This document shows positions 2,759 to 10,409 of a DNA stretch of 48,089 bases, piece after piece. The notes under the pieces are model-generated. The model worked only from the letters and a program-made list of their open reading frames with translations. It was not told the DNA's origin and did no database searches. Position numbers and translations under genes: made by a program. How positions within the stretch are numbered: position 1 is the stretch's first letter; each line of letters begins with the position of its first letter. This stretch comes from a virus (taxonomy: Duplodnaviria > Heunggongvirae > Uroviricota > Caudoviricetes), in IMG/VR virus record IMGVR_UViG_2648501149_000023; one strand, given 5' to 3'.

Positions 2759-3186
2759 TGGTTGCCTCCTTTGCGAAGCTCAGCGGCGAAGGCTACTGCG
2801 TGATCATGATGTTCAAGTGTGTATGCACACTCCGCAAACATCTCCACGCCCTGCGCACGAATTTCAGCCAGGAAAGCATCGGTGGCTGGGGTTTCAGTAA
2901 CATCATCTTCCCATTCGCTAAACTCCTCACGACAAAAGTCATTAAATTCCTTCTCAGATTGCTTAAGCGAGGTATTTTCAGCAGCCATCTTCGCGCACTT
3001 GGCCTCAAGGTTATCAATCGTGATTCCAGCAGAACTACACTCCCGCAACGCCGTTTCTAGTTTTGATTCAAGTTCACCGAACTTACGCACAAGATATTCA
3101 GCGTTTGTTTCGTTAACCTTTAAATCACATGGGATGCATTTACCTTTCAGAAATCCATCCATCTCAATTAGTGTCATTTGTTTCAT
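2755..3186 (-). CDS. Ea22-like early protein
   Basis: ORF track 2755..3204 (GTG start); the ATG at 3186 ([12 protein letters not shown]...) overlaps the stop of the upstream small gene (ATGA). Confidence 0.4.
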
Positions 3187-8047: not shown

Positions 8048-8701
8048 TTAACTAAATGTCTCTTCAGGCCACTGGCTGGCGATAACTTTCCCTACTACGG
8101 AACAGCTATCATTGCATGGGATCATTGGATATTGCGGGTTTAGTGGTTGTAGGAACACCTGACCGCTATCCCTGATCAGTTTCTTGAAGGTAAACTCGTC
8201 ACCACCAAGTCTGGCTATGCAGAAATCACCTGGCTCAACAGCCTGCTCAGGGTCAACGAGAATTAACATCCCGTCAGGAAAGCTTGGCTTGGATCCTGTT
8301 GGTGCGGTCATGGAATTACCTTCAACTTCAAGCCAAAACGCACAATCACTGGCTTTTTTGGTTGTGCTGACCCATCTCTCCGCATCGCCTTTGGTAAAGG
8401 TTCTAAGCTCAGGCGAGAACATCCCGGCCTGAACATGAGAAAAAACAGGGTACTCATATTGTTTTTTAACGGGGGCAGATGAGTATTCGCCAACAGGTGA
8501 AAATGTACCGTCGTGGTTGAATGAGACGTTATCAATACCAAGGTATTTAAACACCACACCAATCTCGTCAAGAGATGGATGACGAGATCCGCGCAACCAG
8601 TGACCAATTCCACCCTGCGTCATACCAAGCTCTTCAGCTAACTTCTCTTGAGTTATGCCGAGTTCTTTCATTCTGGATCTAGCCAGTTCATACCATTTCA
8701 T
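8048..8701 (-). CDS. cI: CI-type prophage repressor (HTH plus S24 LexA-like autocleavage domain)
   Basis: N-terminal HTH (...[21 protein letters not shown]...) and C-terminal S24 domain with G-N-S-M and F-K-K-L catalytic motifs (...[10 protein letters not shown]...[28 protein letters not shown]...); ATG at 8701 with AGGA at 7 nt spacing. Confidence 0.9.
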
Positions 8702-8818
8702 TTTCATATCCTTATTATTACGCTCTGTACTAAAACCATCCATGCACAAGATGTATTTTTTGTTTGCATTCCAAAAGTACATGTCGTATTATTGTTTCAT
8801 GGTTACTATGGAGGGCAT
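8702..8818. promoter_or_regulatory. OR / pR / pRM divergent control region
   Basis: 117-bp interval between divergent cI and cro starts with repeated AAAAGTACA-type elements; operators not individually resolved. Confidence 0.5.
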
Positions 8819-9143: not shown

Positions 9144-9443
9144 ATGGAACAAACAAGTTACAGCAAACTATCACAGAGCGACGTTGATCGCGCAGAAACA
9201 GATTTACTCATCAACCTGTCAACGCTTACCCAGCGCGGTCTGGCAAAGATGATTGGCTGTCATGAATCGAAGATAAGCAGAACGGACTGGAGATTTATTG
9301 CTTCGGTCTTGTGTGCTTTTGGAATGGCATCAGACATCAGTCCAATTAGCAGGGCTTTTAAGTATGCGCTTGATGGACTCACCAATAAAAAACGCCCGGT
9401 GTGCAAGACCGAGCGTTATGAACAAATCCAGATGGAATTTTAA
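9144..9443 (+). CDS. cII: CII transcriptional activator
   Basis: 99-aa product ending ...TNKKRPVCKTERYEQIQMEF, matching the lambda CII C-terminus (...TNKKRP...EQIQMEF). Confidence 0.85.
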   Translation: MEQTSYSKLSQSDVDRAETDLLINLSTLTQRGLAKMIGCHESKISRTDWRFIASVLCAFGMASDISPISRAFKYALDGLTNKKRPVCKTERYEQIQMEF

Positions 9444-9465: not shown

Positions 9466-9609
9466 ATGCGAAAAACGCAGGAAAATAAACGCGTTAATCA
9501 CCGAAAAGATGTGCTACGTGACCAGTTTTATCAGGGGGTTAATCCAGCAATAGCTGTGCCACTGAGAGAAATACTTAACAGGTACAAAACTTCGGAGAAG
9601 TCAAAATGA
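9466..9609 (+). CDS. Small basic protein (47 aa)
   Basis: MRKTQENKRVNHRKDVLRDQFYQGVNPAIAVPLREILNRYKTSEKSK; ATG preceded by GAGGTAA; its stop overlaps the next gene's start (ATGA). Confidence 0.4.
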   Translation: MRKTQENKRVNHRKDVLRDQFYQGVNPAIAVPLREILNRYKTSEKSK

Positions 9610-10409
9610 GCATGAATCTTATGGCTAAGGCCATGAATATAAAGGTTGGCAACCCACTGAGAAAACTGGTTCTGATTAAACTTGCCGATAACGCCAATGA
9701 TAATGGCGAATGCTGGCCTTCATATCAACATGTCGCTGACCAGTGTGAGGTGAGCAGATCGACAGTAAAAAGTCACATTAGGGCACTGGAAGAGATGGGG
9801 CTTTTGAAAAGGGAATTCAGAAGAAAAGGAGAGCTTAACCAGTCAAACGTTTTTTATCTGACGCTGGATAATGCACAACAAATCCAACCAGAATCAGGTG
9901 GGGCAGGAGCTGCCCTAGGGGGTGGGGCAGGAGCTGCCCTAGGGGGTGGGGCAGGAGCTGCCCTAGGGGGTGGGGCAGGAGCTGCCCCCAGAACCTATCA
10001 CTCTTTTGAACCAGTCAATAAACCTAAAAACATTATGTTCGAACATGTCCGAACGGAGTGTGAAAAAACTCCTGACCGTCACGAAGAAACCGACAAGGCA
10101 TTCGAGGAAATATTCTGGTGTGCAGGCATGCGGAAAGCCGGGAAGAAAAACGCAGCTTCAGCATTCAGAACACAGTTCAGGGAATGGCGTAAAACTACCA
10201 GGGGTACGGCAAGCGAGTTTGCCACGATGCTGGCAGAAGACATCGCATGCAGGAATGGTAAGCAGTTCGGATTCGACAGGTTGTTACCATCGAGCTACCT
10301 GAACGGTCAGCGCTGGAACGACGAGAAGCCAGAAACCATTCAACCACAATCCAAACCATCATCCGCAATCACCGTATCGAAAACTGGCTACGTGTTTTTC
10401 GACAGGTGA
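9606..10409 (+). CDS. Replication initiator (O-like; N-terminal HTH domain, internal iterons)
   Basis: N-terminus ...LIKLADNANDNGECWPSYQHVADQCEVSRSTVKSHIRALEEMGLLKRE is a winged-HTH initiator-type domain; the gene contains the 24-bp tandem repeats and is followed by the primase-helicase gene. Confidence 0.7.
   Translation: MSMNLMAKAMNIKVGNPLRKLVLIKLADNANDNGECWPSYQHVADQCEVSRSTVKSHIRALEEMGLLKREFRRKGELNQSNVFYLTLDNAQQIQPESGGAGAALGGGAGAALGGGAGAALGGGAGAAPRTYHSFEPVNKPKNIMFEHVRTECEKTPDRHEETDKAFEEIFWCAGMRKAGKKNAASAFRTQFREWRKTTRGTASEFATMLAEDIACRNGKQFGFDRLLPSSYLNGQRWNDEKPETIQPQSKPSSAITVSKTGYVFFDR
9897..9987 (+). repeat. Four tandem 24-bp iterons (putative replication origin)
   Basis: GGTGGGGCAGGAGCTGCCCTAGGG repeated perfectly 3 times plus a partial fourth copy; each unit holds the inverted repeat GGCAG-gag-CTGCC; followed by an AT-rich stretch (about 9988-10045). 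Confidence 0.7.

Follow-up and report, generated by a model that had tools for sequence, protein, structure and literature searches.

The sequence analysed here is IMG/VR virus record IMGVR_UViG_2648501149_000023, a stretch of 48,089 nucleotides (Caudoviricetes; hereafter, the window, meaning the whole stretch), which represents a P22-like Escherichia coli prophage with 720R6, phiv205-1, CUS-3, and Sf101 as the closest relatives. A tandem array of 21- to 24-bp units lies within the replication initiator gene of this prophage, and the analysis concerns the role of that array as a putative replication origin. The genes around it are ordered cI (8048-8782, minus strand), cro, cII (9144-9443), an open reading frame (ORF) of 47 amino acids (aa), the repeat-bearing initiator gene, a primase-helicase gene, and ninB. 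Feature coordinates are collected in Table 1.

The array was detected in the window with Tandem Repeats Finder (TRF) at 9897-9987 (period, 24; 3.8 copies; matches, 100%; score, 182; consensus, GGTGGGGCAGGAGCTGCCCTAGGG) and was also recovered by a separate repeat search; it is, by a wide margin, the strongest tandem repeat of the 48 kb. Direct reading gave three units of 24 bp (9897-9920, 9921-9944, and 9945-9968; each GGTGGGGCAGGAGCTGCCCTAGGG) and a last unit of 21 bp (9969-9989; GGTGGGGCAGGAGCTGCCCCC), all four contiguous, head-to-tail, and 100% identical. They are read in frame within the initiator ORF as S-GGAGAALG-GGAGAALG-GGAGAALG-GGAGAA-P. The first-pass annotation, which was made from the sequence alone, had described three perfect copies and one partial copy of a 24-bp repeat, in frame and encoding (GGAGAALG)n, and our reading agrees with it on both points. 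A perfect dyad, GGGCAG-GAG-CTGCCC, is present in each of the four units with a centre-to-centre distance of 24 bp; four dyad centres were seen in the array against 0.57 expected, the four identical units representing one independent event. The 16-mer core GGGGCAGGAGCTGCCC has four exact copies, all in the array and none elsewhere in the window; when up to three mismatches were allowed, six matches were obtained against 0.25 expected, and six were reached in 0 of 100 shuffles. In the region from cro to the end of the primase-helicase gene, the repeat search revealed no second repeat cluster; the array, one weak 12-nt repeat, and three inverted repeats were all that was found there. No Rfam family was matched anywhere in the window. 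As single-stranded DNA, the segment 9890-10060 folds somewhat better than its shuffles (z = -2.4), and the centroid is unpaired across the array, with many competing registers; a defined hairpin element at the array was rejected on this result.

The array occupies nt 292-384 of the gene, after the HTH_36 domain and before the C-terminal module that is shared with other phages (see below). The 29-bp element abutting the last unit, hereafter the anchor, contains the word GAACCnnTCA twice, 17 bp apart, and these two sites are unique in the window save for one isolated match. The form of the anchor in the family is AGAACCAGTCAC-TCTTTT-GAACCAGTCAA, for which the window has TA instead of AG in the first word. 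The AT-rich stretch that the first-pass annotation had placed after the repeats is present, if modest: the 40-mer with the lowest GC content in the gene overlaps the anchor, and 40-mers as GC-poor (27.5%) make up 1.6% of all those in the window. Within this 40-mer, a third, degenerate 12-mer, AAACCTAAAAAC, is found at 10020-10031. Closer to the 3' end of the gene, an imperfect 19-nt direct repeat (AAACCATCAACCACAATCC, 1.9 copies at 10333-10370; TRF score, 53), which encodes PETIQPQSKPSS, holds AAACCAT(T/C)CA words with a faint likeness to the anchor word.

Table 1. Coordinates of the features of the replication region in the window (strand ".", no strand assigned)
Feature	Position	Strand	Basis and remarks
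Replication initiator gene, 267 aa	9606..10409	+	ORF list; HTH_36 N-domain, repeat-encoded linker, presumed C-terminal partner-recruiting domain
HTH_36 winged-helix coding region	9654..9806	+	Pfam; presumed recognition helix SRSTVKSHIRALEEMG (aa 50-65)
Putative iteron array	9897..9989	.	Four units; TRF, direct reading, and homologous arrays in relatives
29-bp anchor	9990..10018	.	AGAACCTATCAC-TCTTTT-GAACCAGTCAA; abuts the last unit
Most AT-rich 40-mer of the gene	9996..10035	.	27.5% GC; candidate DNA-unwinding element
C-terminal module	10025..10409	+	93-97% DNA identity with the initiators ES18 gp59, epsilon34 gp50, Sf101, and mEp043; PHROG 33384
Imperfect palindrome	10037..10054	.	GTTCGAA-CATG-TCCGAAC; start of the C-terminal module
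Primase-helicase, 626 aa	10516..12396	+	Pfam Toprim_2 and DnaB_C/AAA_25; PHROG 239 'DNA primase/helicase', E = 2e-171

The N-terminal domain of the initiator was assigned to the Pfam family HTH_36 (PF13730; aa 17-67; E = 5.6e-14; 52.1 bits against a cutoff of 25), and the protein matched phrog_4617 (E = 1.5e-75), phrog_270 (E = 5.6e-69), and also PHROG 8540, families that bear the label 'replication initiation protein / O-like'. With a score above the gathering threshold together with the PHROG match, it belongs to the HTH_36 phage replication initiators. No match of the initiator to Phage_rep_O (PF04492) was obtained at E <= 0.01, whereas lambda O, ES18 gp59, and P22 gp18 scored 123, 122, and 130 bits, respectively, with this model; membership in the lambda O family was therefore rejected. 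The gene had been called O-like in the first-pass annotation, which is correct for its position and, by analogy, for its role, but not for the DNA-binding domain, which is not homologous. A sequence search of the PDB with the initiator gave nothing significant (the best hit, an unrelated epimerase, had E = 0.015), and an AlphaFold2 single-sequence model was unusable (mean predicted local distance difference test score, 36). The C-terminal module has no Pfam family. The initiators that share it (ES18, epsilon34, Sf101, and mEp043) all adjoin a primase-helicase, and relatives with other C-domains adjoin DnaB-like helicases or P-like / DnaC-like loaders, that is, the C-domain goes with the helicase type. 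The module is presumed from this pattern to be the domain that recruits the primase-helicase, and the primase-helicase is presumed to be the partner loaded at the origin. Around the start codon of the initiator gene (9606), a 20-nt inverted repeat with 90% complementarity (9521-9540 and 9651-9670) was noticed, one arm of which lies in the upstream 47-aa ORF (9466-9609); this ORF overlaps the initiator start as ATGA, and the RNA of 9510-9680 has a folding energy of -50.9 kcal/mol (z = -3.6). The inverted repeat may serve translational coupling or control of initiator synthesis.

For the survey of the family, a tblastn search was performed with the N-domain only, which gave 357 phage records. 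Twelve distant homologues (N-domain identity, 32-72%; hosts, Pectobacterium, Klebsiella, Pseudomonas, Vibrio, Shigella, Aggregatibacter, Aeromonas, Burkholderia, and E. coli) were examined, and 80 IMG/VR loci were added, so that 84 distinct sequences were available for the array count. A tandem array was present after the helix-turn-helix (HTH) domain, inside the initiator gene, in all 12 distant homologues; the period was 20-24 nt with 2-4.4 copies in ten of them and 15 nt in phiP27 and SfIV. A TRF array with a period of 18-26 within gene nt 230-420 was found in 70 of the 84 distinct loci. In the flanks of the same loci, only 3 such arrays were found in 221,894 bp (0.003 per 190 bp), which corresponds to an approximately 300-fold enrichment at the gene site. 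The 14 loci without a TRF call mostly have two-unit arrays below the threshold of the program or lie on truncated contigs. The 15-nt unit of phiP27 (locus L016; gene nt 351-399) and SfIV (locus L017; gene nt 310-373) is TCTGACCCGTCAAAA, repeated three to four times and translated as an SDPSK-type repeat, and phiP27 has a second, 24-nt array further on (gene nt 469-524); these members of the HTH_36 superfamily seem to have an origin of another layout. The N-domain family was also seen on 59 'plasmid' records, mostly non-mobilizable and 40-55 kb in length (E. coli, Klebsiella, Pasteurella, and Arsenophonus), which are probably phage-plasmids.

The peptides encoded by the arrays are unrelated between lineages (GGAGAAL, PVPPKSTA, PPMPSDGT, GMPADST, and others). 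Moreover, several periods are out of frame, namely 23 nt in mEp044, 22 nt in Aeromonas phage 51, 22 nt in PseuP_222, and 23 and 25 nt in one clade, and one DNA unit is then read in two frames (GSDTESP/GVVTQSH in mEp044; PQILHHT/PAEVAPP in Aeromonas phage 51). Because periods of 22, 23, and 25 nt shift one and the same unit between reading frames, selection acts on the DNA and not on the peptide. In the arrays of 13 lineages, 27 perfect dyads with 5-bp arms were counted against 4.5 expected, the repeated units not being independent events.

The unit type matched the type of the recognition helix in all 84 distinct loci. The helix [S/G/A]RSTVKxH[I/V]R goes with the unit GGTGGGGCAG...CC, SK[S/T]AVRNHID with CCTATGCCA-N5-TGGCA, SKSAVRAHIE with CCTGTGCC...GCATAG, RSVMNHI (SfV and PseuP_222) with GGTAGTGCA-N5-TTCACC, and KRTAMR (mEp044 and Vibrio D290) with GTGAC-N5-GTCAC. 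The 16 helix residues diverge faster than the remaining domain (for example, 38% versus 66% identity to Vibrio D290). For two pairings, mEp044 with Vibrio D290 and S1249 with RothD/ZF40, the unit type can be predicted from the similarity of the helices but not from the overall relatedness of the N-domains. We regard this co-variation as no more than supportive of an origin function of the array.

The anchor is more uniform than the array. The form AGAACCnnTCAC-N6-GAACCAGTCAA directly follows the last unit in 89 of 96 family loci, which include phages of Pseudomonas, Vibrio, Aggregatibacter, and enterobacteria. Among 43 distinct N-domains, conservation reaches at least 90% at nearly every anchor position, even at codon third positions, whereas the median third-position identity of the HTH codons to the window is only 0.44; substitutions within the anchor are mostly non-synonymous. 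The anchor word GAACCAGTCA is read in two frames per anchor, as RTSH and as EPVN, with NQS of mEp044 representing a third frame, and it is repeated in tandem 2.5-3.8 times with periods of 11-12 nt in SfV, PseuP_222, and Burkholderia E174. To judge from these sequence comparisons, the anchor functions as a DNA element. Our best guess is that it would be an unwinding element and possibly also a single-strand contact for the initiator. We liken it to the repeated 13-mers in the DNA-unwinding elements (DUEs) of plasmids and chromosomes; a study of plasmid Rep proteins (PMC4081077) describes sequence-specific binding to one strand of the DUE at such 13-mers.

Further evidence came from mosaic relatives. 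The initiators of ES18, epsilon34, Sf101, mEp043, and others combine a C-terminal half as in the window gene with a lambda-O N-domain and are, thus, natural domain-swap chimeras; the DNA identity of 93-97% runs from window position 10025 to the stop codon (matches cover query 420-804). A 'lambda-like ori' with four ATCCCTCAAAACGAGGGA-type iterons is annotated in the records of ES18 and epsilon34. This annotated ori ends approximately 39 bp before the shared segment, and the array of the window ends 36-38 bp before it. ES18 gp59 and epsilon34 gp50 therefore resemble the window gene in the C-module, the place of the palindrome, the primase-helicase type of the neighbour, and the distance of the repeats upstream of the module, but differ from it in the lambda-type N-domain and in the iterons. 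In ES18, as in the window, the repeats are followed by an AT-rich tract and then by a palindrome inside the shared segment. The ES18 palindrome, GTCCGAA-AGTG-TTCGGAC (locus L006, approximately 3010-3030), has perfect arms, and one double change (T.A vs C.G) keeps the dyad; in lambda, too, a palindrome follows the AT-rich tract. Moving with the module associated with the primase-helicase, the palindrome may be a helicase entry site. Salmonella phage SI5 is the reverse chimera, in which a different downstream domain comes after the retained HTH domain, two units, and the 29 bp that adjoin them. Since the mosaic joints, which are at 10018 in SI5 and at 10025 in the ES18 type, fall just past the array and anchor, the array moves together with the HTH domain as one module; likewise, the specificity module of lambdoid O genes moves as a unit. 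The SI5 initiator (locus L004, 3001-3657) was further found to share its final 17 residues, PSSAITVSKTGYVFFDR, with window 10359-10409 despite the different middle domain, and it adjoins a primase-helicase of matching size; this C-terminal tail of the initiator may be the contact with the primase-helicase.

The true orthologues of the window gene are the 'O' genes of the Shiga toxin 2 (Stx2) phages 24B, Min27, and Stx2a_F403/F451 and the HTH genes of E. coli prophages, with 95-99% DNA identity. They share with the window the unit core GGTGGGGCAGGAGCTG[C/A]CC, the anchor, and the primase-helicase, and differ from it in the number of units and in the mix of 21- and 24-bp units; the C/A polymorphism turns Ala into Asp and weakens the dyad. 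In their records, the gene is called 'O' or 'helix-turn-helix protein', and no origin is marked. The comparison of copy number among related prophages, which the first-pass annotation had proposed as a check, was run on orthologues at 95-100% identity and gave 1-10 units, always of 21 or 24 nt: one unit in the IMG/VR prophage contigs L027 and L028; two in Stx2_EH2086, SI5, and several IMG/VR prophages; three in phage 24B; four in the window; five in L031; seven in Stx2_EH2085 and WP9-S17; and ten in UTAK-8. A full-length orthologue is present in 115 of 5426 complete E. coli genomes, and among the best 60 of these matches there were 14 allele lengths (777-945 nt), all differences being sums of 21s and 24s. 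A contingency locus or phase-variation switch was considered and rejected, because all units are multiples of 3 nt and every allele length seen, those of the shorter IMG/VR alleles included, is in frame. The internal units of older relatives (75-85% identity) have changed by drift, to GGGGCAGCAGATAACCC for instance, but the unit on the AT-rich side is still GGTGGGGCAGGAGCTGCCCCC, identical to the last unit of the window. Because the internal units of these relatives have diverged, the perfect identity in the window points to recent expansion from the conserved proximal unit and not to an unusual constraint. The identity to which the first-pass annotation had drawn attention is therefore real, but it is explained by recent expansion of a repeat that is unstable throughout the close relatives. 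For comparison, the natural number of iterons is 4 in lambda and 6 in Stx phages, and two iterons with the AT-rich tract suffice for unwinding in lambda (PMC7466680).

Taken together, we consider it probable (roughly 0.75) that the array represents the iterons of the theta-replication origin of the prophage, an origin nested where the prophage's initiator gene encodes the linker. A lambdoid arrangement with the origin embedded in the initiator gene had been suggested by the first-pass annotation, and the position of the array, its recurrence in the family, selection at the DNA level, and the helix co-variation all argue for it; from these we infer initiator binding, unwinding, helicase recruitment, and origin activity. 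In the proposed mechanism, dimers of the N-terminal HTH_36 winged-helix domain would bind the dyad units, which are spaced at about two helical turns (21-24 bp), and the bound initiators would assemble into a nucleoprotein complex like the lambda 'O-some'. This complex would strain the adjoining GAACCnnTCA element and AT-rich tract (9990-10035) and cause melting, and the C-terminal domain of the initiator would then recruit the phage primase-helicase onto the opened DNA. With such direct recruitment, a separate helicase loader of the lambda P type would not be needed. The Gly/Ala peptide would be a tolerated by-product, a flexible linker whose length varies with iteron number, and the units would be identical because the one closest to the anchor, which is conserved, recently gave rise to the others by slippage or unequal recombination.

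Lambda and P22 are the classical cases of an origin that lies inside the initiator gene. As in lambda ori in gene O (and P22 ori in gene 18), the putative origin of the window lies centrally in the initiator gene, with the DNA-binding domain encoded before it and the partner-binding domain after it; the direct repeats, four in number and dyad-symmetric with a spacing of 20-24 bp, are followed by the most AT-rich tract of the gene and then by a palindrome; and the gene order of cII, initiator, and helicase function is the same. Those features of the lambda ori class that sequence comparison can show are present in the window: at least two direct repeats at about two-turn spacing, inside the initiator ORF between the binding and partner domains, with dyad symmetry of the unit, an adjoining AT-rich tract, and co-variation of the repeat with the DNA-binding domain. 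The lambda iterons lie at nt 349-433 of the O gene with spacings of 20, 24, and 23, and are followed by a 40-mer of 20% GC. The differences are also clear. The N-domain is Phage_rep_O in lambda O and P22 gp18 but HTH_36 in the window; the units of the window, unlike those of lambda, are unrelated in sequence to them, GC-rich, perfectly identical, and contiguous; the invariant 29-bp element between the repeats and the AT-rich tract is a further difference from lambda; and the partner is a fused primase-helicase instead of lambda P with host DnaB. The iteron origins of theta plasmids (RK2 TrfA, F RepE, R6K pi, and P1 RepA) are alike in having directly repeated winged-helix sites of approximately 17-22 bp beside a DUE of short repeated words. 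Plasmid iterons, however, normally lie between genes and control copy through handcuffing, which depends on their number, whereas the window has translated sites and a temperate phage as the replicon.

Several observations weigh against the origin reading. The association between helix and unit is mostly confounded by common descent and tight linkage. Neither S1249 nor Vibrio D173 has dyads with perfect 5-bp arms, and in close relatives whose units read CTGACC one position of the dyad is mismatched. The array that follows the HTH domain in phiP27 and SfIV consists of 15-bp words of the GACCCGTCA type, which makes it uncertain which element the HTH domain reads. The single-unit alleles of L027 and L028, which are otherwise intact, fall below the two iterons that lambda needs; they could be defective prophages or collapsed short-read assemblies, or one unit plus the anchor could be enough. 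The AT-rich tract is weaker than those of lambda and ES18 (27.5% versus 20% GC at the equivalent place). HTH_36 weakly resembles DnaD_N (weak matches), and the DnaD_N winged helix of DnaD serves oligomerisation. Finally, no origin cloning, footprinting, or replication mapping for the HTH_36 initiator family was found in the searchable literature, which covers few subscription journals.

Another explanation, which we hold improbable, is that the GAACCnnTCA words (9990-10031) are the primary initiator-binding or origin-core sites and that the array is accessory, serving type specificity, bending or spacing, titration, or handcuffing copy control as in iteron plasmids. Conservation of the anchor does indeed far exceed that of the array in phages of hosts that range from Pseudomonas to Aggregatibacter, and it extends to synonymous sites; most of the HTH domain is likewise conserved; the word is repeated in tandem 2.5 to 4 times in SfV, PseuP_222, and Burkholderia E174; in phiP27 and SfIV, the only array directly behind the HTH domain is built of a similar 15-bp word; and a range of 1-10 units is tolerated, as might be the case for an accessory element. 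However, it is the dyad units, and not the invariant anchor, with which the recognition helix co-varies, and this helix evolves faster than any other part of the HTH domain; dyad units at two-turn spacing also fit binding by a dimeric winged helix as in lambda. An unwinding function would suit the anchor just as well, as would single-strand binding of the kind that the Rep study cited above (PMC4081077) describes. Either way, this explanation still puts the origin at the same coordinates.

The array might instead be a mere coding variable number tandem repeat for a flexible Gly/Ala linker, selected, if at all, for length, with the real origin elsewhere in the prophage. Such a repeat would be hypervariable in copy number with the frame kept, as is observed (1-10 units of 21 or 24 nt); perfect identity is a signature of recent slippage, one-unit alleles exist, and the encoded peptide is of low complexity. 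This is nevertheless very unlikely in our estimation: the relatives keep the period and the place of the array while the peptide changes completely, several lineages have a period that is not a multiple of 3 and encode no peptide repeat, such arrays are approximately 300-fold enriched over the flanks, the unit type matches the recognition helix, the position corresponds to that of the annotated lambda-type iterons of the chimeric relatives, and the replication region is without an alternative repeat cluster. Least credible to us is an array that is not an origin but an initiator-binding operator (for autoregulation or as a transcriptional roadblock) or a structured RNA or DNA element. The palindromic units, the somewhat better folding of 9890-10060 noted above, and the common autoregulation of the initiator genes of iteron plasmids through their repeats would suit it, but the centroid is unpaired across the array and no Rfam family is matched; the out-of-frame, lineage-specific units, the AT-rich tract, the palindrome, and the equivalence to the ES18 ori fit an origin better, and autoregulation is compatible with origin function in any case.

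No paper on these repeats or on the anchor was found in the searchable literature; full-text matches to the sequences were unrelated primers, and keyword searches led only to papers on lambda and plasmid iterons. The 'Eru' papers on the replication regions of Stx phages (PMC8044961 and PMC8951638) say nothing of repeats or an origin in connection with this module. What appears to be new here is the use of lambda-type origin logic with a different winged-helix family, a conserved anchor, and an unusually unstable iteron number. The Lamassu protein LmuB accumulates at palindromic origin repeats on replicating lambda (PMC12663957). As a tentative extension, which we think possible but would not favour, the anchor (AGAACCAGTCAC-N6-GAACCAGTCAA) might be an undescribed universal origin core, for unwinding or single-stranded DNA binding, of the HTH_36 initiators of temperate phages and phage-plasmids, with the dyad iterons giving type specificity and copy number serving as a rapidly mutating control of how vigorously the phage replicates or of how well defences that sense origins, such as Lamassu, recognise it.

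The finding would extend the lambda paradigm to a second initiator family and overturns nothing in the current understanding. It locates a probable origin for a widespread module, which is carried by Stx2 phages (24B and Min27, for example) as well as by P22-like E. coli prophages; members of the family are found in hundreds of phage records, for which the public annotation gives only 'HTH protein' or 'O' and no origin. It also provides a rule for predicting origins and their specificity types (HTH_36, lineage-specific 21-24-bp units, the invariant GAACCnnTCA anchor, and a partner-specific C-domain). The occurrence on probable phage-plasmids suggests that the HTH_36 type of origin also maintains extrachromosomal prophages. 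The polymorphism of 1-10 units constitutes a natural deletion and expansion series for the number of iterons that an origin needs, and unit number may influence the replication of Stx phages and, hence, the toxin dose.

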